46,077 nucleotides of DNA, from contig JAYWIR010000172.1 of the NCBI GenBank assembly GCA_036172245.1, forward strand, positions 1 to 46,077, read 5' to 3'. The notes beneath the pieces were generated by a model. That model saw only the letters and a list, made by a program, of their open reading frames with translations. It searched no databases and had not been told where the DNA came from. Both the position numbers and the translations under genes were made by a program. This document shows, piece by piece, positions 8,391 through 46,077 of the stretch. Position 1 is the stretch's first letter. Every line of letters begins with the position of its first letter. The DNA is from Raillietiella orientalis (Eukaryota).

Positions 8391-8399
8391 GAAGTCAAA

Positions 8400-9655: not shown

Positions 9656-9820
9656 TCTTTGAGCGGTTTCCCGCCATCAGCGTACGCGGCACAATGAAAC
9701 TCGCTTCTTCCACTGCTCAACCCTCTGTTGACAAAGTCAACAAGGAGAAGAGCGAGGCGGAGGCGTCCGTCATCCATCTTACGCTCGATGACGTCGCCAT
9801 TGAGCGCGCCGTGGCGGGAT
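9653..9820 (+). mobile_element. Subfamily A ORF1 internal fragment, target of copy C
   Basis: VFFERFPAI...PSVDKVNKEKSEAEASV...TLDDVAIERA matches 1207-1370. Confidence 0.85.
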
Positions 9821-12800: not shown

Positions 12801-13329
12801 GCTCTCTCGACAGCTTGCAATTGGCTTGCCGAAGGGCGTGTGACGTTGTTCTTCGTCACCAAAGAACAAAGGTGCCTCCTTCACACCTTTGACCGCAGTT
12901 CTTTTTAATTATTGGAGCTCAATGGCAGGTGAATTCTTTAGAAATGGGAGTGTTTCTGCTGCATCACTGGAGTGGGAGACGTCTTAGGCCGTAGCTTCAC
13001 GAAGGTACTCACAGACGTGTTCACGTTCTGCCTACAAGCGCAAGGGGCTGACCAGTGCTCTGAAACTTCAAGTGTGCTTCCGGATGTCTGTGTGTCTCTC
13101 GTGTTTGAAGGCTGCCATCATTCTTCCCAGCTGTCAACAAAACATGCTACTCTTTTGCATTTCGATCTTCTGTGAGTGATTCACGTGATCTTCACAGAGC
13201 ATATTAAGCAGATCCATATGATCGTATTGATGCGGCTGCTATGATGTCACTGCTCTCTCAGCACCTGCGAAGTCGCGTTGCCGGTAAAATTATTTGTCTA
13301 TGGTAGCCATGAAAGATGTGCGCTTCTGC

Positions 13330-14560: not shown

Positions 14561-17500
14561 GGTATGGACAAGTGAAACAAGATAATCAGAACCTCATGTT
14601 ATGTCTGAACAAAACTACAAAAAAGACCGAATTTTATTCTCAAGTTTATTGTAAAATTTGAGTATTCTAATCCCTGGCTTATCCGGTTGGAAAATCATAA
14701 TCCGTGGAATGGGAGAGTTCCAAGCAATATTATCGATGGTCTGCGAGCAGCCGCTGCTGCTTAAAGCATGTGTGGGAAGAGCCTGTTTTGCAGTGTAACA
14801 CTCGCTCGTCCAACGGTACAAGAGCATCTCAGACGTCCTCCGGCTGGCTAAGCACTGACCTGGTGCGTAGAATAACACCTGACAGTCTGAATTGGCCATT
14901 TTATTGGGAGACCAGTGCCGGATTGCTACGGTACGATAGTCGTTTCATGCCAACGTACTATTGTTCCCTTGACTTCACACCTTTTCTGAAGGAAGATTTT
15001 CCTCACCTTTTGCTGCCGGTTGACGTCTAGGCGATAAGGGATATATACAGATTAGGTAGTCTCGACAAGCCTTTCGCGATCAGTGTCTTCATCACCGCTA
15101 TTGAAAATTGAAAGGGAGGGAAGGTACCAGGCGAGAACGACCTGCTTCTTTGCTGTGTCCGTGTTTCACAGCAGAGTTGACCACCCTGGAGCAGAAGTTC
15201 TCTTAGCTGATCCCCGACGAAAAGTGGGCGCTGTAGCTGCAATTGGTTTGCTAGTGCGTGCTGTTTGCGACACCTCCGCAGGAGCTGAGGTAGCTCACGT
15301 AGTCTTGGTACAGTGCCAAGCCCTTGATGACAGGAGTTGGCGTTACTGATGCTGCATTCGGAAGCAAAGCACGTTTCCATCATTTGACACGTGAAACTGC
15401 GGTTGCCAACAAGATCGATGCGAAGAAAAGGAAACGTTACTGAATTTCCTGTTAGGCTGTGTTGCACTCCCTTTCTCTGAGGATAGTTTCTCGGCGACTT
15501 CAGGAATCCCGGCTGGAGACTGAAGAGATATTTGCAAAACGCCTTTTCGCGCGTCCCGCACTACCTCCAGCTTTTTTCATCGCAGTAAGAATAATTATTT
15601 GTAGTAATGTACGTGAATTTTGGTTCCGAAGTATATAGTGGTGTTGGTTAGGTTGGTAGTTGTGAGTGTGGGTTTGTGAATTATTCGTTAGAATGGAGTA
15701 GCATTCATGGAATGATCGTCAATGGGGTTGGGGAGGAATGGAGTGATACGTATTTTGTTTTGCATAATAGGTGTTTTCTGTTTCTAAGATATGTAATGGT
15801 TGTTTCTTTTTTGATTATGGTGTATAAATAGAAATATGTGACCTTTTTGTATTTGCGGTGTGCTGGCAGCATGGTGCACAAACAGAAAAGATAGAAATGG
15901 TGAAGCATCCATCCACTTATCAGCAATCTTCTTGATCACTTTCTCGAAATGGTCCCAATTGTGAGTGATACGTAAACAACTAAGCCTAATATGAAGGATG
16001 CTGAGATCGTCTCTTGAGAAATGTGTGACCACTTTTACTGTCACCTCTCGCCCCCCGGTGAAACTTATTTCTCCATTTAGCATTTTGTTGGTTTCTTGGT
16101 TTCGGGTTTTTTCTTCCCTATTGCTCTAGAAATGAAGGTCATCCCTCTACGTGGCGGTCATGACAACTTGCGTGCACATGATGATGCAACCAACTGCTTC
16201 GCCTCAACTGAGCACTGAACATTACTGAAGAATATAGTGTCCCTGCAAAATCGTGTTCAACACTTCCAGATGAAGCTAACGTCTTTGCTGATGTCCCTGC
16301 TCTGGATTCTGACCTTTTCGTTCTTGTCCCTTCCAAAGCAAAGAGTGCGGGCTCGAGAGATGCTCCTGTTGCATACTCCACACAAACCGCTTTCTGGCTC
16401 GCGAGAGCTATCTTTATATAAGATCACTTGCCCTGTAGCGGTACTGATGAGGCAGAGCAATGCCACGACGTACACGCGGGGCATCGGGTGCGGTTTCTTC
16501 GGATACGGAGCGTTTTCCATACCAGTGGGTAATTCTCCCACAAGGCAGGAGTGCGTTGATGACGATCCGATTTCATCTGCACAAGGAACCATCGCACGAA
16601 AGCAGCCATTCTTCTCGCCACGAAGGCGACCGATGCGTACTCAGCCGAGGTGCCAGCCTGAATACAGCGTTTGTACGCATGATAATTACCTTCATAGCGG
16701 TTGCTTTCTCGCTACAAGAACTGGCAAAGGATATTGGAAGGGCTCAATATTCTGCTGATCCATCATTCTACTTAATACTTCCGGAACGACTTCCCTCTTT
16801 GCTGCCTGTCCGCCTGTCCCACCAGCCTACAGCACTGCTTGCTCGTCATCGCCTTCTCTCCTTCTCCAGTAACAGCGAGAAGAGAGCTCATCGTTGACCA
16901 ACGAGTGCTGAAGGAGCTGGAGCAGCCCTGCGGATCGGTCGCGACCTCTGCAAGCGCACTGCTGCGAACGTAATTCTCGTTCTTTGTCCAAGCGTCCGTT
17001 ATGTAATTCGTACATGTTCGCACACGATTTTTCACGTTGCTTCCACGTCTTCTCAATATCGATATATTGCTGGTAGCACTCTTTACAGTTCACGACATAC
17101 TTTTCGTTTCAATTGTAAATCGCCAAAAACTTAATTAAATCGAAAATTTCGAGCATCGCATTTTCTTGTGTCCTCCCTTCGTTTCGGGAGCCTTCTCTCC
17201 GATCTTCTGTTCCTGTTTTATGGGACCGATGTCCCCAAATTATCGGAATTTTTAAGAAATGTTTCAGGGCAACAGGGTGGGAAAGCACCGCATTTTGAAG
17301 TGAAATGTAAAGAAGGGAATTCCCTTTGTATACAGACGCTTCAGTCGTTACATTCCGACGCCATCATCATCTGTTTAGGATCTTTTATTTCTTCTTCATA
17401 AGGATTCTATGCTTTAAGACATCGTCTACTAAACAAACACCATAGAGTTCGCGTCTTTGCAAGTGATCTTGTTGGACGTGTCAGCGCATTCCACTTCTAC

Positions 17501-23100: not shown

Positions 23101-25000
23101 AAGTCTTTACTTTGACGGAAAATAGGAACGTGCAGATCCCGTGAAAAACAAATAATATGTGTTCCCCCTCTTTGGTGTGCCAATGCATCTTTGCGCATCC
23201 GTCTAAGTATTCATTTCTTTGCGACTCCCAAATTGAAATTTTCCATGACTTTGAATGCTTTTTCTCGGAAGGCTTTATTTCGCCGTTTTCATCACAAACC
23301 ATTAAATTGGGAATCCCACCTTTAGGACATCCCATGATTCCGCCAATCGCGTCGGAACACTTTATAGGACTCTTCACGACTAGCATGCTGCGAAACACCG
23401 ATACGCGAATACAGGAATCTTTCACGAGCCATCCAATGACCACATGGATGATTTTCTTTGCTACCATTGGAATCTTGTATTCCTATGTGCTAACACTTAC
23501 GAGGGTGGATTCTGTTTACAGTACTTCTTGCGCGAGAATCACGGATACGTTTGCAAGTGAGCAAATGCAGCAAAAAGCGCACATTCGTCTTCAGAATGCA
23601 TACAGACCTACTTGTACGGGTTTCTTAAGAGATCATTCAAGAAATGCATTTCCAGGTGCACATTTCTGAGTAATGTTTCAGCAGAATCTGAATCGTGTAT
23701 TCCATGTTCCCTTTTGGGAAAGTGTTGATACGCACTGATGAGGGATTGATGCAGCGCCTCATGAAGTTTTCTCGGGCACTACCTCTTTGTTTCCAAGAAT
23801 CACAGCTTTTTAAATGAACCATCATCCGAAGCGTCTACTCAATTCAGCACTGCTGTGAAAACACCATATTATTTAATTTTTTCCCTCTGGTGTAATCATG
23901 CAAGCAAGACGAATTCCTGGATGCCGCAATTACAAAGCTGGGTTTTTGCGGTGTCCCCTTTATAATGCGGGGTAGATGGGGCTCGGGACTGCTTCTTGTA
24001 ACAAGTCCACTGTATAAAGTAGACTCAGGAGATGCTTAGAAGTGAACTGTGTGAACGGCAGCGCTCGGGTATGAGAGAAAGTGTTGGCGTTCGAATCGCA
24101 CACTTTGTACGTCTCAGTCGCAGACTTGCTGCGACATGGGCATACCATTCCGAGGAAGCCAGCCTTCTAGCTTTTCGTTGAGAAGCAGACGATGACCAGG
24201 AGAGAAAAATTCGTATGCTGCATTGAGTTTTGTGTTCTCTTTTGGAATGAAATGCAGTCCATCCTTAATGAAATCACGTTCAAATCTTCTGTTCACCCGC
24301 GTACCAGATGACTGGAACGAATTCTATTTTTGATGTACATAAATCTTTCCATGTACTTCGCAACTGTTCAATGTAACTCGAGGAAACAGCTGAATGGATA
24401 ACCTGATGATATACGCACCACTTCGTATTGATCTGAATGAGTCATCCAGAAAGGAGAGCCGAGTAGGCGCCAGAGAGCTGCGATCATCGCCCCATGCGCC
24501 CAGCCGCTGCCAATGAAGACGTCACTCTTCCCGCTTCGTGCAGTTTCTTTCTTCCTTAAAGGAGGCAGGCGACTTCTCACTTTGGTAGTTGAGTAGCACT
24601 GCGTGAGATTAGGGAGCGCAGCTCTGCAGCACGTGGTGTAAACGAGTTCTGCAGCTGCTTGCGTGGGCTGCTCATCCTATCTCCTGTGGCGGGTGTCGAC
24701 AGTGCCTCTTTTTCCGGAGCCAGGCGTACTCCGACCCGCTACAGCCATAAATCTTTTCGCACACTGAAACAGCTTCGTGGATCCTGGCAGTGCAGTTGGC
24801 CAAAATTAGTTAGATTCAGGTGTTCTCTTGAATCAAAGAAACCATTTGCTGCAGCTGATGGCCGCAAAACCTCAGGATAATCTCCTTCGTACGGGAATCG
24901 GCGAAAATACTTTGCATGAGGGCGCTCTTCCAGAGAGACACTTCTTACTGTGCTCACCAAGGCGTGTTCCATTACTTCACCACAAGGGCAAGCTCTCTAA
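20200..25000 (-). mobile_element. Highly degenerate Ty1/copia-like LTR retrotransposon gag-pol remnant
   Basis: Eroded motifs in copia order on the minus strand: knuckle-like CPCGEVMEH (~24980), VFIGSG protease-like (~24510), KLHEALH (~23760), GIPNLMVCDENGEI integrase core (~23300), CIRWILENEVRALLV (~21800), NSPVV, WIHPHGF (~21425), *VDM (~20945), GQPTK (~20225). No LTRs or PBS found. Confidence 0.6.
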
Positions 25001-28000
25001 ACTCTAGCTGAAGCTCCAATCTCTCCAGCGTAAGTATGCTGTGTCCACCATTACAGCGCGCAACACACAATTCTACAATTGGAACACGGGAACTCTATGT
25101 GCACCTAGTATTAATCCCCTGTAGGAGTCTTTAGCCCGCTTTTTGTTGCCTACTTAGCACTGAGCTCAGTGCGAAGTAGGCAGCAGAGTGAATTGTCAGT
25201 GTTAACGACTGAGATGTGAAGCGGAGGCTGCTCAAACAGTCCCGGGCGTTCTTTTTCGTAAACAGTGGAAAGCTGGCTGATGACTACGAGCCAGGTGTTT
25301 TGCCCGTCTCCCGATCCTTAGCGCCAATCTGTGTAAGCGAGTTCTGCTGCAAAGTGTTTCGCAAATTCTGCAGGAGCTCGTGCGCAAGGAAGGAAATTTC
25401 CCTGTCCACCTCCAAAGGCCGCTGCATTCGTTTGATGGGGAAGGGTGGCGCCAGCCGGCTAGAAGCCTCATCCAACGTCCGCGTGCGCATAGCTTCCTCC
25501 AGCTGCCCTATAGCTCATTCCTGATCAAGAGGCGCACTTGCACACAGTGCGGCCTTACCACGCGACCTGCGCGCCTCGTCGCACAACAGAATTGACAGTC
25601 AGGGTTCTGGAAGGCCTGCTGCATCGTCTGCCAGGGATGTTGTCTCGCCGGAGTCGTGCAGCATCGGGCTGCCCTCCAGAAACTGCAATGCTCTTGCAAA
25701 AAGTTTCCCTGACAGAATTCTTTCCCGCAGAACCGGTGAGTTATGCAGAGGATGCCATTGGGAAGGAATCATTGTGGTCGATTTCAATCGGTAACCGTAT
25801 CGATTGAAAAAACCTTCTGGATGGTTCGCAGTTCCTCTTACCTTTCCGATGGCTGATGAGGACTCCGGACATGTTGCGTGTCTTCTTTTTTGCATTTGCC
25901 TTATCAAATTTCATGCTGTTGTGATCTCACAAGGGTAGGCCTTGTTTGTTCTGGTCATCTCATTTCTGAACAGAGGTAAGCACCGGGGCATGATTGGTAA
26001 AAGGAGTCGGACCTTTGCCGCTTCCCTGTCCACGGAATAGTGACGTATACCTCCGCCCATATTTTATTGACTTTTTGGAGCAGACCTAGAAAGGACTTCG
26101 TCTGAATGCAGATAAAAGAAAAGGGATTTTCCCTGACGTGTGGGGTCATCCCAGAGTGCGTTGGTTGCAATGAATATTCATCTCAACCCCTCCAGAAATT
26201 GAAACTAGTTCTGATAGTATACACAGTAGAATGAAGCGTGGTCGCTTGTTATGATGTGGTTCATTGCGCGAGGTCTCTGGATGACCGTCGACTTGTCTGT
26301 CTTTCCTCGTCGAAGACAGCAAGCGGAATCATCCAACTCAGGTGAAGATCGGAAAGACGCATGCGACTCCAAAGATGTATGCAAAATCGCACTTTGCCTC
26401 AAAGGATTCCACATGAGGATTTTTCGACCTCGCTAATGATCTGCATGGAGAGAGGATGCACCTTCTGCAGGGGAACGAGTTGGGAATTCCGGAGGTGCCC
26501 CTCTTGATGTTACAACTTGGTGCACTTGCACGCAGGCCGCTGACGCTCAACGCATTCCCGAGAGTTGCGTTCAAGTTGGTTTATACCCGGGTTCGGCAGG
26601 CGTGAATATTCTTCCTTTTTTAAAAAGCAAGCGTACCAAAGTGTGGCAGCACGTTCGGTTTTGCCACGTTCATGGCATGCAAAGCCTACCGACATGTCGC
26701 GACGAAGAGCACACAAATTCACCTCGGCAGCATAGGAATAAAGGGCAAGAAAATGGAACAGAAGCAAGGAAAAAAATCCAAATAAGAACATCTCTGGATG
26801 GATAGGAAAGCGATAGTCAAAGATGAACACAGAGGCTGATCTTATCAGTGTGTCTGCAAAGAAGACTTCAAGTTGCACGCCTTTTCACGTGGGGTGGTAG
26901 GTTGCACAGCCGCTGGAGGAACAGTAGCAAGGGACTCATCTTCGAAGGAGGCAAGGCTGTGGCCGAACAGGATTGCTTGTGCGCTCCGTCAGATACTCGT
27001 ACGCTTCCCAACTCTTTATCACTGGAAACCATTCTTCCCCGAGGAGCCTTCGGGCACCCTCCGCGGTCCGTTCCAAGCGATTTTGTTGTTCTGAAATACT
27101 TCAATTCGGAGTCGCGCGAGTCTATTTGATGCTCCAGAGCCCGTGGCGACCTTTTCGAAGGGATGTTTCTCTCTTCGGCAGAACCAGCTCTCAGAACTTC
27201 GCGTGCAAGGACAAATATATCAGTAGTGTCGTTGTTTGTTTTCCTGCCTAGCCATCGTGTTGACCGTTTCTGCTCGCATTGCACGCAGTTCACTTTATTC
27301 CTTTGTCACCTTCGCAGCACCAATTTCTTCGTATGCAATGCTCTTTCTGGAAGGCTTCTGTATTTCAGAATTTGCTGCGTCACTTTCTTCAAGCAGTTCG
27401 CTTCCCGGAGTGTGTTTGGCTCCTAGGTAAGCCCGGAAGCCTCCGTTGCATATTCGATTCTTTAGTCGATGTGAGGGCGAGTCTCTTTTTTGTGCCCGCG
27501 TTCTTTTTGCGGAAAGTTGTGGCTGTACGTGTGCACCCTTTTCTCTTGCAAGAGTTTGCCTGCAAATGTTAGATTATCACAGACTCACCGCAGCGAGTAC
27601 GCCTGATGTTCGTTTCCCGTGACCCTGGAAAATGTACAACATTAGGCCTGATTACCTACCACGTCTCTCCGATTTCGTCATTGATGCCTACTTCTTTTAA
27701 GATGAAGGACCTATTTGCTATACGCGTACGTGTTCCTTCCAGCCCACTAAATGTGGTGAAAGGCTGGTACAGCACATGTTTTCCGCAAAACAGCATGAAC
27801 AGCAGCACACTTCGACAGTCCGCAACCTTGCGCACATCGGCAGCAAACCCCATTCGGATGGATCCACGCGGATTCGTTCTTAAGGATAGGATAGGTCACA
27901 TCTCACCTTTCTGGAACATTGGCTTCATTAGTAGCCGGTGGACCAACACTACATTTGCACTGCATAGCTCTCCCCAGATGCCGCTTGCAGGCGTTACCAG

Positions 28001-31450: not shown

Positions 31451-32149
31451 TATTCAAGCTTACAGCTTTTCTACCCAAACCTCTTTATGTACAAAAATGC
31501 GTTTGATATCAATACACCAACTGTTCATTTTTCATCCTCGCAACCAGAACCAGGCCACCGGTAACTTCACTTACTTTCTCAGCACCACCGATACCCCTTT
31601 CACCAATCTTCACATAGACATGAACACGCTCCGCTGCAAAGTCAAAATTTTAGGTAGATTGATCCAGAAGAACACGAGTCTGAATTTCTGGGTATCCTTG
31701 TTTGAATAAAAATTGCTTTTCAACTTGAAATGTTCAAATCCATTCTGTAAAGAAAACTTTAATTTTTTCTTTCTTTTGTGCATTCTTTAATGCCAACTTT
31801 ACGGCAAAGTAAGAATTCCTTATTTTCTAGGGAAGATTTCGTCGGTGACGAAGCGACGTTCTTTGGGCACACCACTTTGGTATGACCCTTCTCGCCACAA
31901 GTGGGGCATAGTGCGTCCAGGCATCTTTTTTTGAGATGCCCGAATGTCTTTCGAATCCCGCAAAACTTTGGTTTACCAACTCACCTGACGTCGACGAACT
32001 CGCCTCCGAGCTGGAGTTTGTGGGGAAGTTGGGAACCATTGCGCGAAGTCACGCGTTTAGGGACACGCCCACTGAAAACGGCCCTGACCCCGAAACGGTT
32101 GGGTTTCCGCCACGACATATGAATCACGGCGCATTTTTCAATATCGCTT

Positions 32150-34372
32150 GTCTGACGAGGGTGAGAAAGCAGTGGAAAGAGATGGCGGAGCCGCGCTTGT
32201 AACTCTTGCTGTCGCAGTCGATCTGCGTAAAGCGTTCGTCTGCGTTGACCAGGAACACCCTTGGTGCTCCTGGAACGCTTGGGATTCCTGGCCGTCTTCA
32301 GGGCTTATCTGCGCTCCTGCTATCGCTTCGCTCTAATCAACATCACTTTCAGCGGGCGGTGAGAGTACGGCGTGCCGGTTCGGCGTGGCATAAAACTTGG
32401 TGACAGTCTGAAAACCTTGCTCTTTAGCATCTATATCGAGCTGGTGCCAAGGGCATACAGGCAGACTCTGGCAACCCTGGCGAGCTCGTGTGCCGGCACG
32501 ACTGCGAAGTCGGCCTGCGTCGACGACCTTCTGCTCCTGCTCCCCGGGTCCACCTCGGCGTCGGCGCTCGAAGATTGATTTGAGTTGCTGCGCCGCGGGA
32601 CGGGCCTCGAGGTGAACAGGGAAAAATCCATGATTGTTTCGACACCTTCGACTACGGCGTAAGCCGAGCGGTCGGAATGGTTCCGCTTGGGGATCCCCAT
32701 GGGTAAGTGCTTCAAGTAAATTGGCGTTTTGTTGAGCGTCCGATATCAAGCAGAAGCCTGGTCCGACCGTCTCGAAAAGGTAGTGTTGGCAATCGGCCCG
32801 TTCTGGAACTGCAAGTTTTAATTACAGGAGCAAGCTGCAGTGTGCAACGCGTTCGCGGCCCCCCTTCTTCGCCCCTTACTTTTTGTTTGGCCCGCACCTC
32901 CCATCATACAGAGAAGGACCAAAGCCCTCTTGAGGACTGCCCTTCGGGGCACAGCGAGGTCGCGTGTCCGATTGAAAGACTTGTGCGCTCCACGCAGGGA
33001 AGGTGGCTTGAGCCTCCTAACGTTGAAGCGCATCCAACTACAAACAACACTTCGAAAGTTAGCCCTTGCAGCTAGCTTATGGATGACGCCATGGTGCGAT
33101 CCGGCACGGCAACTCGCCAGAAGAGCGACCGGCTGCGAAGGATTGTGCTCGATCTTCGTGGCCTACCAGCGCAGCCTCTCCAACTGTGGCCCCGATTTGC
33201 GCCAGATGGTCGCCCTGATAAGGGAGAATACCTGGATCTCTTGCCTCCCCGCGAACTGCACTGCCTGGCTTCAGGACTCAGCCTCCGCGTGGGCTGAGAT
33301 CAACGGCACGAGCGAGGCGTTATACAACTGTCTACGACGAGGACCGTACGCTCGACAGCCGCTGCAGGAGATTATCAACACACCCAGGAAGTTTCTGTGG
33401 ACTTCTTTCAGCCCTCTTGCCACCATTCTGTCCTCCCTAGAAAACACTAGGAGCAGCAACGAGCTGGCATCGTGGGAAGTGTCCTGCCTCATCCGAGGCA
33501 GAAAAAAACCTGTAAAGGCGTGGACGACTCGGGAGCTCACGGACGCTGCTACTCCGAGCGTTTCGCCTCACGGACTTGCGCGCTGAGGAGTGCTGCTCGC
33601 AATACCTCCGGAGGAGGTGAAGTGGCCCCCAGCGTGTTGGGTTTGCTGCACACTTCCGTTGAAGTGGCACGAGACGGCGATGCTATTTCTGCACTGGGGA
33701 CTGTTAAGCAGAGCACGGCTGTTTCACCGGACACTAGGTAATGTGGATGCCCGCTGTGTCGAGTGCTGAAAAAGAGAAAGCTTCCCGCATCTCACCATCG
33801 AGTGTGTCGCCCTGGATGGACTCTGAAGTCGAATCGCCCCAATCCTCCTTTTTCCAGTAGGCGACCCTAAGAAATTTACCGTCGCCTCTTTCTGCGTGAC
33901 GGCCTGCGCACCGCTGCGTCTCTACCAGTCCTCTGCTGCGTGCGCGGCATTGTGCAAAGGTGGCACGCCAGATGAAGAGACTCAAGATGCAGGGATGCCA
34001 TCCACTGGACGACGATCTCTTTAGAGACGGCGACAAGGTGGCGTCTACCTTTCAGAGTTAAAACAGAACTTGACTGCATCCTGAACAGGATGCGGAGGAC
34101 CGACCCAGGCGCTCAGTGATCCCTTCCCTGCCTTCCCCCTCTCCCCATACAACTGTTTCCCTCCAGTTATTTTTCTTTTTCTTTGTTTTTGTTTCAGTAT
34201 TCCCTTCCCATGCGCCTCGGGAATGGACCTAACCGGTCTATGCACTGGCAACCGACACGTCAAGCAAGGTGGGAGAACCCAGTGTTTCTCCACAGAAAAC
34301 ATGTTTTTAAAGACTTTATTATATAATTTTTTGTGAAAAATCAGAATGATAAATGCCCCGGCATATCCGGGT
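32150..34372 (+). mobile_element. LINE 3' half (RT to 3' terminus), decayed
   Basis: AVAVDLRKAF, RRGIKLGDSL, CVDDLLL, PRREGGLSLL, ELTDAAT, CVEC...HLTIEC; terminus GATAAATGCCCCGGCATATCCGGGT. Left edge uncertain, may extend to ~31850. Confidence 0.88.
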
Positions 34373-34625
34373 GACACACTTCGGCTGCAGCCGAGCATTC
34401 CTGGCCAGCGTAATCGAGCAGACAATCCGCTCCAGACTGCCAAACCTGGCGCTCGGCCCTGGCCTTGTACTCCGCCAGACGCTGGACGTCCGTGCATCGG
34501 GAGAAGATACGCGCCAGCAGATAGGATCTCCTGTTCGCGACACCCACCCCGAAGTCTGGGGGTAGCAGGTGCAAGGAGTACCGGCAGCAGAACTCGCAGA
34601 GCGATCTTTTTAAATTGTCGCAGTC
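34373..34625 (-). mobile_element. ~250-bp ORF2 linker fragment trapped between two plus-strand insertions
   Basis: DCDNLKRSLCEFC...LPPDFGVGVANRRSYL...WQSGADCLLD...AAEVC, equivalent to A1 ~2607-2862. Confidence 0.88.
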
Positions 34626-37256
34626 CTCGAGCGAGAGCGGACGGGTTTTTGTTTCGCTCTTGAGCGTTTGTGGATTTCTTTTTTTTTCTTTTTATTCTTA
34701 GTGTGCCAGTGGATTCAATCGTGAATAAGCAGCAATGCCTGGGACCACCATTAATGTTAAGGAGGGGGCGACGTCTATGTCGCCTTCTGAATCAATGGAT
34801 GTGGGGGCAACCGCCCCCACAGAAGCGACTCCCGCTCTAGGGAGAAGCTGGAGTTCCGTGGCTGCGGCGCCAACGCAAGCGGCTGCGGCCGAGTTAAAAG
34901 CCTACCTAAAGGAGGGGTACAGTCCCCCTTAACTCTACAAGGTAGGCAACCTTTACTCTATTGAGAGTGCACGCGCTTTCTCGAAAGCGATGCACTCCTT
35001 TAAAGTACACCAGGAGGAGCTCTTGGCGATGACCATGAGGAGTAATGGACAGTACGTTGAGGTGATTTGCAAAGAAGCAAGTCTTGCCCAGCGTCTGCTT
35101 CGTACACCTGTTTCTTTGGGGAATCGCCGGCTCCTCTTCATCACGGAGGATATATCTATCGGAATCCATCTCCTCGGAATGACCTTCCGGATAGCCAAAG
35201 AGGCTGTCGGAGAATAATTAATTAAATTTAGAACCGTCCACGCGTTGTGGAAAAAGCCGACTTCATTTCGGGAGCACTATCTGCTAAATTGCGGCCAGGC
35301 TTCCGCGCGAATCACGTTCTGCGAGGGTTGCTCTTTACAGAAAAAGCTGGAGGTCAACGGCGTCCCCGTTGACATCTGGTAAGTTCGTAAGCCGCATTTC
35401 TGCGGGCATTCCAGCACTTCAGGTCACCTGAAAAAAAGGTGCCCCCACTTGCCGTGCAAGCAATGCAAGCAACCCGGGCACACTCTTCCGGTGTGCTTAA
35501 AAAATGAAGTCCGCGTCGCGTCCTCACGGAATGCGAAGAAGCGCGCGTCCGAAATATAAAGGGTTCAGGCATCGCAAGAGAGACCTGCTGCTAAAAAGAT
35601 AACTATCGTGCCCCAGGTGAAGGTCAGCTCCGAGATCCCGGAAAACTCGGAAAAGGTCGAGGAGAACGGCCAGGAACCTGGATGTAAGGTAGTAGAATCC
35701 AAGAGTCAGAGTAGCCTCAAGAAACCAAAAAAAAATGTAGCGAAACGCACCGAGAAATTGCCGCCTCGCGAAAACATCAAACGCTGCTATGTCGTCTTTA
35801 AGCGCATTCCTGCAGTCCAAAAGAGCGGCAAAATTGCACTCGTCGCTGCCGAGTCTCAGCCCTCCGGCAAATTAATAGCGGAGGCTATCGACCCGGCGGT
35901 GGCGTCCGTCGTCTAACGCATGCTCGAAGACGTCGCCATTGAGCGAGCGGCGGAGCAGCTAGCTGCGTCCTTGTACCGTCTCCCCAAATCCGCGAAGAAG
36001 GCTTTAAGGCGTTCGACCTCGATCAAGAAGTCTTAGATTCCGAGCTCTGTCGCAGAGGGGGAAAACACAGCCGGCGGCATCGCGACCTCCCGCCCGAAGG
36101 CCAGTCGCACGAAGAAGGCTACCTGCAAAATTATCCCGTTCGTGGAAAAGGCAGAGATAATCGAGGGAAGCGAGCGTGCAAAGAAAGTGGGGAACTCCGG
36201 GGACTCTCCTCGAGAGGTAACCCCACGCTGAGACCCCGGAGGGAGGGAAAGGGTAGAGTCTGTACCCCAGGAGATTCCAGTGCCTGAGATGGCCGCGGTT
36301 CTCTTACTCGTTTTTCTCACCTGTCCCTTGACAGGTGCTGCAACGCCACGTTCCCAGCTTTCATGCCGGGAATCGCCTCTTGCCGCCGTCTGCGAATTGT
36401 TTATTGGAACGTCAATGGGCTATGCAACGACGGCAAAAGACGAGACGTGGCCTTCACCCTGGCATCGTTCGACCTGGGGGTGCTGCAAGAGACACTCGTG
36501 ATCTCTGTGCACCAAGCAACGGAGATCGAGCGTATCTCGGGTGGACGGCTGATGTGGCGTTGCGGCATCTTTAAATCTTGCGGTGTTGCATTCCTGCTTC
36601 GGAATGCTGTGGAGGCTGCGGCAAAGGGCGTACGGTTCGATAGTGCCGGTCGCGTCGGGAAGTTGACCATCAGGTGGTCCGACTTCATCGATCTGGTCAT
36701 TACCAACGTGTACGCCCCAAGCGGCAGCGACGCGCTAAGGGCAAAGGCAAGGAGAGATTTCTTCCTTACTCTGAGGCGCAAATATCTGTACGAAGCAAGA
36801 GTGCACAAAGCGCACCTAATCGCAGGTGACTTTTACCTTCGCCTGCTGTCAGGTGCGTCCGACACACTTCGGCACCGCGTGAAGGAGCTGTGCGCAGAGA
36901 TGCACACGCGCAACTTATTCCCAGGAGATACGAAAATGGCCGACAGCATAGATCACGTGTTTTTTGACCAGCACCTATGTTGACGCGTGGGCAAACGCGG
37001 CAAGTTACCGTCGGAACTGTCGGACCATTACCGGATCTTATTCGAGGTGCGCCCACGCGATAGGGTTCGCCCGTCATCTGCGTGGCGCTTAGCGGGGGAC
37101 TGGCTTGAACTTCCGGAAGCCGCGGAGCATCTCTGCAGATTCATACGAGGTTTCAGCTTGCAGACGCTTCAGGACTGGGGCCGCTTCAAGCTCTTGGTCC
37201 GGGAGTTTTCCGACGAGTTCCCTATGAAACTCCTGCCTGCAGGGTTTGGTGTTGCC
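34622..37256 (+). mobile_element. LINE copy A2, 5' half (ORF1 34735-36363 with stops; endonuclease from ATG 36363)
   Basis: Colinear with A1 48-2695; WNVNGL, NVYAP, AGDFY, SIDHV, SDH; ends at LPAGFGVA. Confidence 0.92.
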
Positions 37257-37842
37257 ACCCGGGTAAGCCCGGGGCGTTTATTTAAAAAAGCTCTCTGTGA
37301 TTCGTGGTATAAGGCCCCACTGCTGCCTTAGACAACCGACCTGTCGGGACACCGGGACGCAGCCCGGAGTGGCACTACCCGACAGCGAAAGGGGATGGGG
37401 TCAAAACAAAAAGAAAAATAAAAGAGATAAACAAACAAAAAAAGTTTGGTGGGCAGGTAATGGATCACCGGAAGCTGTGAAAAGGGCCAATCTGTCGAAG
37501 GAAGCCCTCGAGGTCTGTCCGCATATTTCACAGATGGGGCCATCGAACAGCTCACCGCCAGCAGCGTACTGCGTGCTCGATGACTTCCTTCTCGTTCCAA
37601 CCTTCATCTTCGCTGTTGGCATCGCTCCAAGCCGACACGATGCGTCGAACGCAGCACATGACTGCGAGGGCTGTTGCTGGCTGCAGGGCGTCCCGCACGA
37701 AGAAGTGGCGGAAAAAGTCTCTGGGTGCAGTGCCCGTAGGGATTCCTAGGGTCGTCCCGAACCGTTCCCAAAGTGGCTGGAGGGCATCTCAATCCAATAT
37801 AAGGTATGGGAGCGACTTCCGCTCCCCGCACCTGGCACACTG
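37257..37842 (-). mobile_element. LINE 3' end fragment (CCHC finger, 3' UTR, terminus) inserted in A2
   Basis: CARCGERKSLPYLILD; terminus AATAAACGCCCCGGGCTTACCCGGGT. Confidence 0.88.
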
Positions 37843-40034
37843 ATGCCTCACACTTTCCCGCGTCCTCTGCGCCGACGGCGAGGAGTTGGAGTGCCGTCGT
37901 TGCTGCACCATCCCCGGCTGCAGTAGCGGAGCAGACTGCCTACAACGACAGCGGCTACAAACCGTCGCTGATCTACAAGTTAGGCAGTGTGTTCGATGAG
38001 AAAATTGCACGCTCCTTTGAAATGGAGCTGCAAAGACTGAATGTGAGGGAGGAAGACTTCGAGGGCCTCTCCGTCCTTAGTGGGGAGCAGCGAGTTGAGC
38101 TGACTCGCAGAGAAGCAAGTTTAGCGTAGCGCCTGCTAAACACCCCCATTACGGTGGACAGCCGCAGGATCTTCCCTGTGACGGAGGACCATTCCGTCGT
38201 GGGAAAGCTTAAATATTGTGGCCATTGCGATGCTACAGGGCACTTAAAAAAATGGTGCCCTAACATCCAAAGCTACTTATGTGGAAACAAGGGCCACATC
38301 CGCAAGGTGTGCCCGAGACGAGAAATCTTGGTTCCTCCCGCTGCGAAAAGGGCAAAGCGGAAACGGGCGGGAGAGACGCATACCATGAAGCAGGCCGTAA
38401 GGAGACAGATGCCAGTCCCTAAGCCATCCCAGCAAACGTCTGTTGAGAGCACTCCCGACGACGCTGGCGACGGCGAAGTCTGCAAGACGGTACAGCCCAG
38501 AAGAAAGCCCTGGAGTTCCGAACGAAGCGCGGGGAAAACAAAAACGCAGCGCGAAAAACCGTGCCGCGAGAGAGTTCGCGCTTGTTCGGTAAAATTAGAG
38601 CGTGTGGAGGCACTCGATGCCGCCATCGGGGGAGCAATCCCCCCACTCGCGTCCGCCGAAGCCGCGACGATCGATGGCGAACCCTCTGGAAAAACAGAGG
38701 GGAACAGAAGGGAAACAGAGGGGAACTGCGCGCCGCGCTCGACGCGATCGCAGGGGCCGCCTTCCAGCAGGCGGTGGAAGAACTCGAGGCAGAGCTGCAA
38801 GGCCGTGAGAAGAACTTCCGAAAAGGCTGACGAAGGCAGGCCGCGAGGAAGGTTCCGGATGCAGGTGAGGCCGAACCGGATGCCAGAATTGCGTCCTCAT
38901 CAACATAGGCGCCACCAAACAAGACAAGACGCAAGTCCCAGAATCCCAGAAGGCGCATAGGGATCAAGAAGGAGGAGCATAAACTGGCACTCGAGGGGGA
39001 AGCCGGCAGCGTAGGAGGCGAGAGTGGGAATCTCTCATTTCTCGACACCGTGCAGCTGGAGACCCCTGTGGAGGAGGAAGTACAGGTGGGTGAAACCCCG
39101 CTTCCTTTGCACGGCCCTGACGAAGACGCGGCCCCCATGGAGGAGAAAGAAGCGGTGCGCGACGCACCCCCTTCCCCTTGCGTCCCGCCCGACAAGGTGG
39201 CAGGAGCCCTATTGCCACTTTCTCAGGATTAACACCTGGACTCGCCTGTCGCCGTAGGATCCGCATAGCCTGCTGGAACGTCAACGGGCTTCGCGACGAC
39301 GGCAACAGGGGGGATACGGCCGACACCCTGCGCGACTCCGACCTGGCGCTTCTGCAGGAGATCCACGTGATCACCGCGGAGAACGCCCAGGAGATCGAGA
39401 GGATCGCAGAGGGTCGTCTGTTTTGGCAATGCGGCGCCCGTAACACCTTTGGCGTCGCCTTCTTTATGAAGCCAGCAGTGCCCGCCTTCGTCAAGAACGT
39501 GCACTTCGACAACGACAGTCGGGTTGGCCAGCTCATCCTTAGGTGGTCCGACTCGAGCGACCTTGTCGTGACCAATGTTTACGCTCCGAGGGGAGGATGA
39601 GGATACGGAGAACGTTCCCGGTTCTTGGAAACCCTGAAGCGCGACTGGCTGCCGGATACATACGTACGCAAAGTGCATCTGATCGGTGGGGATTTTAATA
39701 TCCGCCTGCTCTCAGGTGTGCTTTGCGGGCAAAAAGACGCAGCCAACGAGCTGTGCACTGCTATGCGCACGCACAACTTGTTGAGAGACATACCGGAAAT
39801 AATCCAAAGCGTAGACCACGTCTTCTTTGACGCCGACCTGTGCCCAAGGGTAGGCAAACCAGGGATACTTCCTTCGACGCTATCGAACCACTTCCGATTG
39901 ATATTCGAGGGTTTGCCTCGCGACAAAGGACCATCATCCAGGGCGTGGCGTCTGCCTGGGGACAGGACGCGCATCTCAGAAGCGGCGGAACATCTCCGCC
40001 AAGTACTGAGAGGCGTCATCCTCCAAAATCTCCA
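37843..40034 (+). mobile_element. LINE copy B2, 5' half lacking 5' UTR (ORF1 to TAA 39230-39232; endonuclease 39232-40034)
   Basis: RSWSAVVAAP...GYKPSLIYKLG, CGHCDATGHLKKWC, WNVNGL, LQEIH, NVYAP, GGDFN, SVDHV; ends at ILQNL. Confidence 0.9.
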
Positions 40035-42524
40035 TTGAAACCCGGGTGCGCCGGAACGTTTATTCTCACGAATAAACCTATACAATCTGTGACTGGACCA
40101 GTAGTCCAGCCACGCCCTGGAAAGATATAGCCTGCCGGGCTATCGGTGCGCAGACTGGCGCGGTCGACCTCGGCAGCAGAGGGGTGGGGGAACGAAACAA
40201 AAAAAAACAAAAAATGAACAAAAATCAGGGAGGGAGCGGGAAGGGATCACAGACTGCTGGGAGGGTCCGTCATCCTCTGGAGGATGCCGGCAAGCTGTTT
40301 CTGCGTTTGTGGTTCCAGATGGGGCCATCGCGTCGCCATCCTGAGAAAACGGGCGGCATACACGTTGGCATCCCTGTCGCTGGATCCTTCCGTCGCTTTG
40401 CTCCATGCCACGACGATCCCGCGTAGGCAGAACAGGGCTGCAAGCGAGGCCGCTGGAGGCAGGGCGTCACGCACGAAGAGGAAGCGCAAAGCGTCTCTGG
40501 GGTTGCCTTCGGGGATCCCCAGGGCTGCGGCAAAGCGTTCCCACAAGAAACGGAGGGCAACACAATCCACTAACAGGTGGGGGAGGTATTCCCTCTCCCC
40601 GCACCTGACACAATTAGGGTTGACACCCCCCCGGGTCCAGTGGTGTCGGCGGGCGTTGCAAGGAAGCCCCCAATGCAACACCAGCAGTGCCGACTGTTGC
40701 CACTTCATGAGGAGGGTGCGCGAGTCCATGAGCACCGGGGGCCACTCGAGATGTTCCTCTGGAACATCCAGTAGCTCTCCGCAGCGCAACAATCCATTTG
40801 GGGTGGTCCTCGGGGTCGCAGCGTTGGTGAGCTGACCCGTTCTCCAATCCCCGATCTTCTGTGCCCTGCTGGCGATCTTGACAGTCACCTCCCATTGTGC
40901 CGCGACGTCGCTGCCCAGATGTTCCCGGAGGGTAGGCAGTACCGCAGCAAGGGAGGTTCTTTGTGCCCACGCTCTCCTTCGGGTATTCTCGATGATTTCT
41001 CGGAGCGTGCGGTGGGCATGCGGCCCGAACAGAGCTATTCGCTCGTGTTGCGGGCTCTGCTCCTGAATCATCGCCCACGTGCGCACGGTTTCCTGCAACC
41101 AGGCAGGACCGTTCGCGGGGCGTACGAGGATCCGCTCCGAGTTGTTCTTCACGAGCTTGGCCGCCCTCCGAAGTTGGAGTCCGCAGTGGCAGATGGGGCT
41201 TCGGAGTGCAAAGTAGGACGAGAGTCCTGCATTGCCGGTGGCCTGCTCGACGAGGAGACGTGCACGGAGGCACCAAGGGGTGCACCAATTTTCTGCCATA
41301 AAGGCAACAACTCGGAACTGGAGCTGTAGCTCCAGCCGCTCCAACGTCAGGAGGCTCAGACCACCATCCCGACGAGGAGCAGCCGGGGTGGACATAGGCA
41401 GCAGCAGCAGAAGGTCTTCCGCGTACGCCGAAACCGCAGGCGTACCGGGACAATCGCACGGCAGGTGCGCCAGAGTCTCCCTGTACGCTCTCAGCACCGA
41501 TTCGAAATAGGCGCTGAAAAGCAAGGGGCTGAGGCTGTCTCCCTGCCGTATGCCGCGTCGCACCGGTACGCCGTACACGGTGGATCCACTAAAAAACACA
41601 TTAATAAGCGCGTCGCGCCAGCTGAAGCGCAGGTAGGCCAACAAAGAGGCCGGGAAGCCCAAGCGTTCCAGAAGTTCCAGCAGGAGATTCTGGTCGACGC
41701 AATCGAATGCTTTATGCACATCGACTGCGACCGCGAGGGCTCCTCTCCCCTCCCGACCATCCCGTCCTCCACCGACGGAAGCACCGGAATTCCGGTTGCT
41801 TATTATGCTCCTTCCTTGTTGGAGCTCTAACCATGTGGAAGCGTGGAACAGGTTCGCCTCCATACTTCGCCCGGGAACAGCAAATGTCTGTTCCGAGCTG
41901 ATGAAGATGTTGGCGACCCGTCCCAGGCGCTCTGCCCACAGCTTGGCTAGCAACTTGGCGTCCGCATTCACTATTGTGATGGAACGCCAGTGGTTCATGC
42001 TCCTAAGGTCTCCTCCCTTAGGGAGGAGCCGCACCTATGCTGAACGAAACGAGGTGGGAACGTCACCTGTTTCGCGGATCAGCAAGGTGAGTTGCTGTAC
42101 CAGGGGGGTAAGCTCAGCCGCGAAAGTTTGGTAAAACTCCGCGGGCAGGCCGTCCTCCCCTGGAGCCTTCCGCCTCTTGAGCTTTCCGATGGCCGAGATG
42201 ATCTCCCCTATCGTGAAAGGTTCGTCGAAGTTCCTTTTCTCCTCCTCCCCGATTGCTGGAGCACCTTCCGGAAGCAGGAGTCGTGAGACAGCCTGCTCCG
42301 GAGGCGCCCTGGCGTACAGGGAGTAGTAAAATTTCCTCACTATCCCGCGTATCTGAGCGGGAACCGAGTGCTCCCGGCCCTGGTCGTCCAGCAAGCTGGC
42401 CGACCCGGATTGCCAGGCTTTCCACTCGGCTCCCGCTCGATACCCTGCTAACCTGCGCATGTCGGGGGTTCTCGCGTAACGTCGGGCCTGAACATAGCAC
42501 CTTTCGTTACGCGGCCCCTCCCCA
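40035..42524 (-). mobile_element. LINE 3' half (linker, RT, CCHC finger, terminus) inserted in B2 and itself interrupted by B3
   Basis: KAPGEDGLPAEFY, VDVHKAFD, GIRQGDSLSPLLF, YAED, CVRCGEREYLPHLLVDC; terminus AATAAACGTTCCGGCGCACCCGGGT. Confidence 0.93.
40247..42524 (-). pseudogene. ORF2 RT and C-terminal portion, with one stop (~42035), YADD changed to YAED, and an in-frame deletion at ~41375
   Basis: ORF track 42035-42799 and 40247-42034 are the same frame separated by a TAG. Confidence 0.88.
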
Positions 42525-42629
42525 AATCCCTCTCCTCGAGAGCGGACTTGTTTTTCCGGCGCTCTGCGAACGAGCAGCGGAAAGCGGTTTTTTGGTTCAG
42601 TGTGTGCTTTTTCACATCGTTGGTGTCCG

Positions 42630-44377
42630 ATGGCATCGCTCCCAGAGGACACCACGATGGAGGTAGGCGTGAGGCAGGCTAGCCCCCCCCACGACCTACA
42701 GAATCTGGGGCACCCGCCCCGGATTCGCCCTCGTCGCCCAAGACGAGCAGCTGGAGCGCCATGGTCGCCGCGCCGAGCGCGGAAACCTTGGCTGAGCAAG
42801 CGGCCTACAGGGCCTCCGGATATAAACCATCGCTGGTTTATAAAGTAGGAAACCTGTTCGACGGTCGCACCGCGCGTACCTTTAGCAAGGCACTACATGA
42901 ATTCCCCGTGCGTGAGGAGGATCTTGACGGCCTCGCAGTACTCAGCGGGGGGCAACGCGTGGAGGTCGTCTGCAAAGACGTAGCCCTAGCGCAGCGCCTC
43001 ATCAACACCCCGCTGGATGTGGCTGGCCGAAAGATCCTACCCGTTAGCATGTACCGCTCCGTAGTGGTCCATCTAACGGGGATCACGAACCGCATGACCC
43101 GCTCTGCGGTGAACGCGGAATTGAAAAAACACGGAGATGTGCACGCGCTGTGGCCAAAGCCAACCATTTTTGACGGCTATAACAGCCTCTTTAATGGCCA
43201 GGCAGCAGCGCGCGTCACTGTGAACGAGGGTGCTGGGTTACCCCACAAACTGGAGGTCGGGAAGGAGCCCGTAGACCTCTGGTATGTGGGGAAACCCCGC
43301 TATTGTGGCTACTGCGATGCAGTAGGGCATGTGCGCAGGCGGTGCCCGAATATCGAGTGCCACTTGTGCGGGCAAAAGGAACACGTCCGTCGTGTGTGCC
43401 CTAAACGCCCCACCCCGGTGCCACCTGCTGCCAAAAAGGCACAGGCGAAAAAGGTGGATAAGGTCGAAAGACCTCATCGCGAAAATGGCCGGCCCCAGCA
43501 GCCTTCTGCTCCTCCTCCAACCCAGGCAGCGGCGGAAAAAACCGCGAAAGACGCGGGCGAGGAAGAAGGTTGGACGCTGGTAAAGGCCAGAAAAGAACCC
43601 AAAAAAGGTTCACAAGAGAAGGCGGAGAAAAAGCCGGTCGCGAAGGCGAAAAAACCTGGTCCGCGATCTAAAACTCTCCGCGAGTGCTCGGTAGCACTGG
43701 AGCGCATCAGCGTTCCCGAGGCTGCCACCCGAAGCGACGAGGCTCCCCTCGCCGTTTCCGCCGCGCCCGAGGTTCGCGACGGCGAACCCTGTTTGCACAG
43801 AGGGTGAGACGCGCGACGCGCTCGCCGCCGGCGAGGACGCCGCCTTCGCGAACGCGGCGGAGGAGCTCGCGGCCACGCTGGCTGAGCGTGAGAACCCCTC
43901 ACGCAAGGCCGTGCGAAGGCCGGCTCCGCCGAAGAAGGCCCCGCAGGTGAGTGCGCCCTGGGGTCCGGAAGTGCATCCTCCTCCTCGGAGGCACCCCCCC
44001 GGAAGACGGGACGCAAGTCCCAAAAGCCGAGGAAGCGCCTCCCCTCCACGAGCGAGGAGGAGAAGCAGGAAGTCGCCGGCAGCGTGGGAATCCCGGAGGG
44101 GGAGCTCCCACGCGCGGAAGCCGTCGAGCAGGACACCCCCATGGCGGAGGGTGAGCAGCGGGGCGAAATCCTTCCTGCCGTCGCGGACCACGAGGAGCCC
44201 ACCCCAATGGAGGAGGGCCAGCAGGTAGGCGCGACCCCACCTGAGGGTGAACCGCCCGACGCGCCGTCACCGATGGAAGAGGGTGGCTAGGTGCTAGAGG
44301 CACCTGTCCCTCCTCCTCCACCTAGCGTTCCGCCCCAACAGGTGGCGGACGCCGCACAGCCGATTTCCCAGGAATAA
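42630..44377 (+). pseudogene. ORF1 of B3 (frameshifts, one internal stop at ~44288)
   Basis: MASLPEDTTMEVG start; CGYCDAVGHVRRRC and CHLCGQKEHVRRVC; stop TAA 44375-44377. Confidence 0.88.
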
Positions 44378-46077
44378 CACCTGGGCTCGCCAGTCGCCGT
44401 CGGATTCGCGCCGCCTGTTGGAACGTGAACGGGCTGCGCGACGACGGTAACAGGCGAGATACGGCCGACACCCTGCGTGACTTCGACCTGGCCCTGCTGC
44501 AGGAGATCCACGTGATCACCTCGGCAGACGTCCAGGAGATCGAGGCGCTCGCGGAAAGTCGACTGTATTGGCGATGCGGCGCCCGCAACACCTGCGGGGT
44601 CGCGTTCTCCGTCAAGCCGACCATCGACGCTGCCGTGAAGGACGTACGCTTTGATGACGACGGTCGGGTCGGTCAGCTGATTCTCAGCTGGTCCGACTCG
44701 ATCGAATTGATCGTCACGAACTGTACGCCCTGAACGGAAAAGGTGGATACAGCGACCGTACCAGGCTGCTGGAAACCCTGAAGCGCGATTAGCTGGCCGA
44801 CACGAATGTGCGGAAGGCACACATGATAGCTGGAGACTTCAATCTCCGTCTGCTGTCAGGTGAGCACGAAGCACAAAAACGCACGGCCAACGAGTTGTGC
44901 GCTGCCATGCGCACGCGCAACTTGTTGGCAGACGCGGAGGGAATGGACCGCAGCATCGACCACTTCTCCGTGGATGTCGACCTGTGCTCACGGGTCGGCA
45001 AACGGGGAAAAGTTGCGTCGACGCTGTCGGACCATTCCAGGATCATCGCCGAGGTTTGCCCGCGCGACAAAGGACCCCCGTCCAGGGCGCGGCGGCTGCC
45101 TGGGGACTGGACGCTGCTCTCAAGGTGCGAAAGAACACCTTCGCGAATTCCTGAGAGGCGTCACCCTCCGCAGTCTCCAAGACTAGTACCTCTTCAAGGC
45201 CACGGTCCGCGAGTTCTGGGAGGAGTTTCCCCTGCACCGCCTGCCCCCCGGATTCGGGGAGGGAGCTCGGAACCATCGGGCTTATCTACAGGCCCGCCGG
45301 TGCGAGAGGACCCCGAATGTCCGTCGCCTAGCGGAATATCGAGCCGGGGCCGAACGCCAAGCCTGGCAATCCGGGTCGGCCAGCTTGCTGGACGACCAGG
45401 GCCGGGAGCGATCCGCCCCACCCGCGATCAGGCACCTCGTGCGACGTTACTACTCCTGCCTCTACGCTAGGGCACCCCCAGAGCGGAACGCATCGCGGCT
45501 CCTGCTCCCGGATGGAGCCCCGGCAATAGGGTAGGAGGAGAAGATCAGCCTCGATGAGCCTTTTTCTACCGGTGAAATTCTCGCCGGTATTAAAAGGCTC
45601 AAGAGGCGAAAGGTGCCAGGGGAGGACGGCCTGCCTGCGGAATTCTTTCAATGTTTTGCGGCAGAGCTGGCACCCCTGGTGTCTCAGTTGACCGGGCTGA
45701 TCCGAGACGAAGGCGACGTTCCCGCCTCGTTTCGGTCAGCCCGTGTGAGGCTCCTCCCGAAGGAAGGAGAGCTGAGATCCTTGGGCAATTCGCGTCCGAT
45801 CACAATCGTGAATACGGACGCCAAGCTGATCGCTGGACTGTGGGCTTTGCGTCTAGGACAGGTGGCAGACTTCATAATTTGCCCGGAGCAGACGTACGCT
45901 GTTCCCGGGCGAAGTTAGGATGCCAACCTGTTCTTCGCGAGCACATGGTTCCATGTGCAGCGCTGCCTGAACGACACAGGGGGAAAGATTGGCAACCCCA
46001 CTTTGGGACCGCCAGCTGGGCTAAGAATGGATACCCGGGCTGGGAAAGGAGCCCTAGCAATCGCGGTCGATCTCCAC
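44377..46077 (+). pseudogene. ORF2 of B3 (begins ACA, not ATG; several stops and frameshifts)
   Basis: TPGLASRRRIRAACWNVNGL, LQEIH, AGDFN, SIDH, SDH, RT N-terminal motifs. Confidence 0.88.

Follow-up and report, generated by a model that had tools for sequence, protein, structure and literature searches.

The array at the right-hand end of the window

We analysed positions 1–46,077 of contig JAYWIR010000172.1 from the Raillietiella orientalis assembly GCA_036172245.1; this 46,077-nt stretch is the window, and all positions refer to it. Its right-hand block (34377–46077) is made up of pieces of long interspersed nuclear elements (LINEs), which were mapped by tblastn with the window's own open reading frame (ORF) pieces and whose junctions were refined on nucleotide alignments. 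Six pieces occupy the block without an unassigned gap, in the order C5 (-), A2 (+), C3 (-), B2 (+), M (-), B3 (+) (Table 1). An earlier note on this DNA had described a strictly alternating array of 3' halves on the minus strand and 5' halves on the plus strand, and the six abutting pieces do follow one another in the order it gave. For B2 the description as a 5' half holds only in part: ORF1 up to the QDW position is present on the plus strand, but the 5' untranslated region (UTR) of ~215–235 nt is absent, so B2 is 5'-truncated.

Table 1. LINE pieces of the window. Disruptions are the minimum number of stops plus frame changes per layer, a reference-free count.
Piece	Position	Strand	Content	Disruptions	Counted (bp)	Per kb
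C5	34377–34630 (left limit 34379 ± 2)	-	ORF2 linker fragment, amino acids (aa) ~145 back to ~62 (A1 numbering)	0	258	0
A2	~34631–37249	+	A-type LINE: runs from the canonical 5' end through ORF1 and endonuclease (EN) into the linker, ending at GFG	8	2528	3.2
C3	37250 to ~37866 (right limit ambiguous, 37866–37885)	-	3'-terminal ~0.6 kb of a LINE, inserted antisense at the GFG of A2: C-terminal CCHC region, 3' UTR, tail AATAAACGCCCCGGGCTTACCCGGGTGGCAACA	1	335	3.0
B2	~37868–37885 to 40034	+	B-type LINE: ORF1 from about its start, EN, linker to the QDW position	3	2156	1.4
M	40035–42530	-	A-type LINE: GFG codons, reverse transcriptase (RT), CCHC region, 3' tail; antisense in B2 at QDW	1	2280	0.44
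B3	42531–46077	+	B-type LINE: 5' terminus to RT start, antisense in M at GFG; exits the window	8	3317	2.4
D	32178–34379	+	3' part of another LINE, RT aa ~91 to tail ..ATAAATGCCCCGGCATATCCGGGTGACACA; antisense in C5 at linker aa ~145			
E	31858–32148	-	ORF1 fragment (aa 166–263) beside the broken left end of D (tblastn)			
A1	~58–5570	+	Near full-length A-type LINE, centre of the second nest			
H	1–57	-	Short host piece left of A1, broken at QDW, adjoining the 5' end of A1			
B'	5571–7656	-	B-type 5' half: 5' terminus (7639–7650), ORF1, EN aa 1–62; a 5' half (-) of a right arm			
X	7657–8459	+	LINE piece from the GFG codons (GGAATTGGGG) into the RT start; host of B'			

The outermost host of the array is C5, which is cut on the left by the 3' tail of D and on the right, at the QDW codons, by the 5' end of A2; its tblastn match (34377–34634) has 55% aa identity to the linker of A1 and carries neither stop nor frameshift. 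A2 opens with the 5' terminus GAGCGGAC (34635–34642), followed by a UTR of ~100 nt, ORF1 (34735–36360), EN (36363–36959) and the linker, which ends ..GGGTTTGG at GFG. Its EN is 75% identical to that of A1 in nucleotide (nt) sequence, and stops interrupt ORF1 seven times and ORF2 once. C3 has 62% nt identity to the 3' end of M. B2 is 75% identical to B3 in the EN and ends ..AATCTCCA at the QDW position (40034), directly followed by the 3' tail of M (..AATAAACGTTCCGGCGCACCCGGGTTTCAA). M, 81% identical to A1, has a single in-frame stop (42035–42037). B3 begins with TCGAGAGCGGAC (42536–42547), continues through a UTR of ~225 nt, ORF1 (42761–43807), EN (from 44380) and linker, and carries four stops and two frameshifts in ORF2. 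Its linker reads through both sites at which other copies are broken (QDW and GFG), which bears out the earlier note's statement that the B3 hotspot is still empty.

Domain content and classification of the elements

Each element has an ORF1 with putative CCHC knuckles and an ORF2 with an APE (apurinic/apyrimidinic) endonuclease, an RT and a putative C-terminal CCHC motif. The endonuclease profile PF03372 matches the EN of A1 (E = 2.7e-10, 40.8 bits, cutoff 24.5) and that of A2 (24.6 bits), and the RT profile PF00078, downstream of EN, matches M (E = 5.5e-14, 52.8 bits). Two further domains score below their cutoffs: zf-RVT PF13966 (18.3 bits, cutoff 27.5, E = 0.0037), for which a CX2CX7HX4C string is visible in the translation of M, and zf-CCHC in ORF1 of B3 (18.9 bits, cutoff 20.8), with two CX2CX4HX4C strings visible in ORF1 of both B3 and A1. 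The zf-RVT domain is present in 74% of the members of the first cluster among the atlas neighbours. All four 3' ends (A1, C3, M, D) consist of AATAAA(C/T)G, a CCGG..CCGG hairpin and a tail of 3–8 nt, and none of the four has the poly(A) or A-rich tail of the L1 clade proper.

In both domains the best match among solved structures is human LINE-1 ORF2p: the closest structure is human L1-EN 1vyb for EN (E = 6e-6) and L1 ORF2p 8c8j/8sxt for RT (E = 5e-14), with R2 next (7.5e-10). Searched against 1.8 billion representative proteins, the RT gave 9312 hits, of which three were below 1e-30, so the lineage is poorly sampled; the best named relative is an unnamed turtle protein with 38% identity. Of 10 clusters looked up, 3 had names, none of which named a clade, and an EN search among longer proteins returned no match. 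A protein-guided scan of metagenome contigs with the A1 linker matched 262 pattern stretches, none of which was confirmed as a relative. Judging by their domains, the elements appear to be L1/Tx1-like APE-type non-LTR (long terminal repeat) retrotransposons, an assignment at a level that does not separate Tx1 from L1.

Insertion junctions cluster at two codon sites

Each (+) piece ends at the start of a (-) element's canonical 3' tail, and two of the three (-) pieces end at the start of a (+) element's canonical 5' terminus. Guest 3' tails (AATAAACG, a CCGG hairpin and a short tail) adjoin the host break at 37249/37250 and 40034/40035, as does the tail of D at ~34379; guest 5' termini (..TCGAGAGCGGAC..) adjoin it at ~34631 and 42531–42536. 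The 5' termini with GAGCGGAC stand at 34635, 42540, 61 and 7639–7646 (-), and the four 5' ends have ..(T)CGAG(A)GCGGAC.. in common. Target-primed reverse transcription from a nick in the host's sense strand characteristically leaves a (+) host that ends exactly at the 3' tail of a (-) guest; on its opposite flank, such an event leaves a (-) host that ends at the intact 5' terminus of a (+) guest. The piece order, the strands and this junction anatomy match what repeated antisense insertion predicts, as the earlier note had argued. We suggest, with a probability of roughly three in four, that the block forms the left side of a nest of related L1/Tx1-like LINEs that grew by directed serial antisense insertion.

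Nine junctions in the window can be placed on the element. Three fall at the L-Q-D-W codons and three at the G-F-G codons 24 codons downstream, both in the linker between EN and RT. The GFG junctions are those of C3 into A2 (A2 ends ..CAGGGTTTGG at 37249 and the tail of C3 is next), of B3 into M (M resumes GGGATTTGGGG at 42530–42520 on the minus strand, 5 nt from the 5' terminus of B3) and of B' into X (X resumes GGAATTGGGG at 7657, 6 nt from the 5' terminus of B'). Both of the latter 5' junctions have 5–6 unassigned nt and then host GG(G/A)ATT. The QDW junctions are the 3' junction of M into B2 (40034/35) and the 5' junctions of A2 into C5 and A1 into H; beside the A2 and A1 5' termini, C5 and H resume 5 and 17 nt upstream of the B2/M nick point. 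Six junction pairs among the nine lie ≤20 nt apart, versus a simulated mean of 0.27 (P = 2.5e-5), with host coordinates estimated from alignments. Host and guest are antisense in 5/5 pairs of the array (P = 0.031) and in 7/7 when D and E are counted (P = 0.008), and strands alternate in 12/12 neighbouring pairs when both dense blocks of the window are taken together (P = 2.4e-4). CTGCAG is present 6–8 nt before the junction in both hosts (C5 at 34380–34395, A2 at 37235–37249) of the guests with ..GGGTG(A/G)CA(A)CA tails, D and C3, maybe by chance.

The same block could be an ordinary transposable-element graveyard, in which LINEs inserted at random and the alternation and shared breakpoints arose by chance or from a diffuse preference for the linker. 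Two to three junctions away from both sites would fit such a graveyard, as would the sparse middle of the window, where strands do not alternate and four (+) fragments follow each other, and antisense orientation in 5/5 pairs, taken alone, gives only P = 0.031. However, chance does not readily give the six close pairs where 0.27 are expected or the unbroken alternation in two dense blocks, and the two B-type 5' junctions align to one and the same host position even though the hosts share only 65–66% identity. We therefore consider random accumulation improbable.

The family of the guest appears to go with the site. The A-type guests (A2, M and A1, 75–81% alike) are at QDW, and the B-type guests (B3 and B') together with C3 are at GFG. 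The sequences that were hit read ..AATCTCC(A/T)GGACTG at QDW and GG(G/A)(T/A)TT(T)GG at GFG; A copies at QDW read C(A/G)CTTCAGGACTG, and B3 and C5 at GFG read (A/C)TTCGGGG. These sequences, from the few copies compared, hint that each lineage may spare itself from insertion.

Independence of the junctions

The segment 5580–8360 is collinear with the reverse of 41846–44561 across the junction (72% identity over 2.8 kb). This, together with the flanks and uneven decay of A1 described below, which suggest recombination between copies within the window, would be in line with a rearrangement, in which inverted or segmental duplication multiplied a unit of 3' part (-) and 5' part (+), or recombination or inversion between copies built the arms. 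However, identity between the collinear blocks does not exceed that between unrelated family members (70–75%): nt identity between copies is 75% for A1/A2 and B2/B3, 71% for B3/B' and 70% for M/B3, within an overall range of 61–81%. The hosts M and X have 65–66% nt identity and 39% aa identity over the linker, and since the frame of M is open over 2.28 kb with a single stop, their divergence arose in active lineages, before insertion. Moreover, from one unit to the next both the content and the breakpoints (QDW, GFG, RT C-terminus) change, and all breaks lie at canonical element termini, unlike duplication breakpoints. Rearrangement thus has little chance of being the explanation, and the M|B3 and X|B' junctions are independent hits rather than copies of one junction.

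Twin priming of L1 gives products in which an inverted 5' part adjoins a direct 3' part. Seen from the minus strand, each (-)/(+) pair of the array resembles such a product and might stem from a single retrotransposition event with an inverted 5' segment. However, M and B3 overlap in element sequence by ~700 bp (B3 45250–45950 versus M 42529–41829) at 72% identity, which means different templates and contradicts twin priming, and M terminates at its own tail inside B2. We regard this explanation as extremely unlikely.

An assembly artefact, in which repeats of several LINE families were wrongly joined, would find some room in the public run X1, which consists of short contigs and in which 250 of 386 related pieces are less than 90% alike. 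X1 holds 7% of the sampled words. On the side of serial insertion, this independent run contains many related short contigs, 11 of the pieces being at least 99% alike, and 4 of 13 joints in it are of the opposite-strand kind. False joins arise inside shared sequence and not at the termini of dissimilar sequences, whereas the junctions here coincide exactly with element termini, and diverged copies are broken at homologous host positions time and again. Misassembly is therefore very unlikely, and serial antisense insertion remains our preferred reading of the array.

Flanking pieces and a second nest

To the left of the array, strand alternation extends through D (+) and E (-); D is heavily decayed, with 18 disruptions in 1.9 kb. 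At the other end of the window a second nest surrounds A1, whose 3' tail adjoins B' (-), broken in EN at aa ~62. B' is 71% identical to B3 in ORF1, and the X|B' junction is of the same type as M|B3. The stretch 5571–8459, with B' followed by X resuming at GFG, is a right arm of the kind that the earlier note predicted for the array, but it belongs to the second nest. The motif GFGVA, which the note had listed among the points of resumption, turned out to be the GFG of A2 plus read-through into the tail of C3.

Decay along A1 is uneven. Its first 3.1 kb have one stop and a GTG replacing the ORF1 ATG at 142, and its last 2.1 kb have at least eight disruptions, so that A1 is possibly a chimera formed by recombination between two A-type insertions. 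In host coordinates, ~620 bp separate its two flanks (QDW on one side, EN aa ~62 of B' on the other); hence arms need not mirror each other exactly.

About 25 codons at most separate the break of X (+) at 8400–8459 from the start of D (+) at 32170–32185, both immediately 5' of the RT codons A-V-D-L-x-K-A-F-D, and this region may be a third insertion hot site. The idea that X and D are halves of one element split by the 8.4–32.2 kb block was rejected, as the ends have no repeat in common and align poorly. Beyond X, the ORF1 at 8800–9429 (-) belongs to another LINE family that is more distantly related (28–30% aa identity to ORF1 of A1 and B3), followed by an ORF1-tail fragment at 9592–9855 (+). 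Between 10000 and 31800 we found no recognisable gene among ORFs of at least 130 aa, only old LINE fragments. GC content in this middle is 0.44–0.50, versus 0.52–0.63 at the window ends, and strand alternation is confined to the two nests.

Order and decay of the layers

The earlier note had expected fewer disruptions towards the right, as an age gradient. Counts per kb do fall from A2 to M, but the innermost piece, B3, is worse than M (Table 1). Reference-guided counts in ORF2 are 1 in 900 bp for A2, 2 in 333 for C3, 1 in 798 for B2, 1 in 2280 for M and 6 in 1698 for B3. B3 is also in no better condition than B2. In the part covered by B2 it has three of these disruptions, none of them common to both. 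B3 probably derives from a source copy that was damaged beforehand. The stop of M is a private one, since 5/5 related contigs of X1 read T, not A, at 42037.

Base composition follows the order of the nest, with GC at 0.54–0.57 in A2, 0.58 in B2, 0.61 in M and 0.62–0.63 in B3. Over aligned sites, B3 is richer in GC than B2 (94 versus 60, p = 0.008, and 129 versus 97, p = 0.039) and A1 richer than A2 (154 versus 106, p = 0.0035), and M and B3 show no difference (p = 0.29). Age can be read from this trend only if decaying copies drift towards an AT-richer background. CpG decay gave no signal as a clock, with observed/expected ratios of 0.89–1.13 in all layers.

Overall, a clean age gradient is not supported: the order of events is set by containment, and decay is a noisy and partly contradictory witness. 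Of the earlier note's view that the array is a chronological record of subfamily activity, the order of events stands, but the layers do not provide a clean decay clock; as the copies belong to lineages that are 61–81% identical, any subfamily chronology rests on containment only.

A proposed model of directed serial antisense insertion

The stack would have grown through a series of target-primed reverse transcription events, in which a nick in the sense strand of one copy primed the next; such priming would place every guest antisense to its host. The chain of containment would have A2 inside C5, C3 inside A2, B2 inside C3 or at its end, M inside B2 and B3 inside M. Insertion would be directed, with A-type copies entering at the L-Q-D-W codons after a nick following ..ATCTCC(A/T), and B-type copies (B3, B') and C3 entering at the G-F-G codons after a nick following ..GGRTTTGG. 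Since an insertion splits the host site, the newest copy would be the only one in the stack to offer an intact site, which would explain why every event hit the latest layer. The pieces, their strands and termini, and the positions and recurrence of the junctions are directly visible in the sequence; from them we infer the nick positions, target duplications of ~5–17 bp (pieced together from different events), the association of each family with its site, and a right arm, with B3 predicted to lie at the centre. For B3 in M the target duplication is expected to be about ..GGGATTTGG.., matching 42520–42530.

Several observations weigh against this model. No insertion in the window displays both of its junctions at one site, and three junctions per site are small numbers. 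Single events fall elsewhere: D into C5 (linker aa 145), the A1 3' junction (EN aa 62) and B2 into C3, which is at neither hot site and involves a 5'-truncated guest. C3 may itself be a 5'-truncated insertion of 0.6 kb, in which case the right arm would have no C3 5' half. Nor could its 3' end (62% identity to M, ~50% to D and A1) place it in the B family, for which the window offers no 3' end to compare. The ORF2 damage of B3 (6 disruptions in 1.7 kb) exceeds that of M (1 in 2.28 kb; P = 0.027), the E|D junction fits a simple nest poorly, and the distance between the A1 flanks shows that arms need not be exact mirror images. In the sparse middle, four old fragments within 13303–15547 are all (+), and those at 24819–25085 and 31858–32148 are both (-). 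Finally, none of the listed X1 pieces bridges a junction of the array, so that the assembly is neither supported nor refuted by them. The right arm would lie beyond the window end, and a 59-base pattern from that end had 0 matches in viral, metagenome and genome contig collections.

A more far-reaching idea, which we offer tentatively and would sooner doubt than believe, is that at least two LINE lineages have each other as their sole habitat. The A endonuclease would recognise ..ATCTCC(A/T)^GGACTG in linkers of non-A copies (A copies read C(A/G)CTTCA), and the B endonuclease ..GGRTTTGG^ in non-B copies (B3 and C5 read TTCGGGG). Each insertion would kill its host, escape self-targeting and offer the other lineage its sole fresh site, a reciprocal and self-renewing 'safe haven' that would build Russian dolls alternating in strand and family.

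Comparison with known systems and significance

Site-specific LINEs are known for rDNA, telomeres, small-RNA genes and a few DNA or LTR transposons, and human L1 inserts at loose TT/AAAA sites. The known systems closest to the array are the target-specific Tx1-group LINEs and the Zepp nests. Unlike human LINE-1, the elements described here lack a poly(A) tail, have an ORF1 with apparent CCHC knuckles and insert in a site- and orientation-specific manner.

Tx1-clade LINEs have a fixed site and orientation in other transposons, as for Tx1 in the piggyBac-type Tx1D; Tx1-Mar inserts in Mariner-N4_AMi around position 240 in the opposite direction and around position 830 in the same direction, and Tx1-8_Crp and Tx1-4_AMi insert in LTR retrotransposons (PMC4494074). 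The elements studied here resemble these target-specific Tx1 LINEs in being APE-type, in that families differ in site and in their fixed orientation, a likeness of insertion behaviour; in the window, three junctions at QDW and three at GFG, all antisense, show a fixed site and orientation in a repeated target, if in a small sample. Unlike the Tx1 LINEs so described, their targets are coding sequences of related LINEs and not DNA transposons, LTR elements or small-RNA genes, and each insertion here creates the next target, giving deep alternating nests.

Zepp LINEs of green algae target existing copies and form GC-rich clusters (61% versus 53% for the genome; PMC3446292), and Zepp and ZeppL build tandem arrays mostly of 5'-truncated 3' ends by nested insertion (PMC8226300). 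Our array is like these L1-type clusters in that insertion is into existing copies and that the elements (54–63% GC) are richer in GC than their surroundings (44–50%). Compared with Zepp by these descriptions, it differs in its antisense layers, in its breaks at two discrete codon sites and in that two of the three visible 5' ends (A2 and B3) are full-length. Literature searches at the level of listings and abstract openings turned up no precedent for LINEs inserting antisense at set codons of their relatives.

The layer order on which these considerations build derives from containment, not from decay. The finding yields a testable prediction in the order and breakpoints of the right arm. If true, it would account for the formation of deep nests and would be a source of natural endonucleases with defined targets of 10–20 bp. 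A guild of LINEs that lands backwards at fixed codons of its relatives would, moreover, represent a new mode of persistence that spares host genes.

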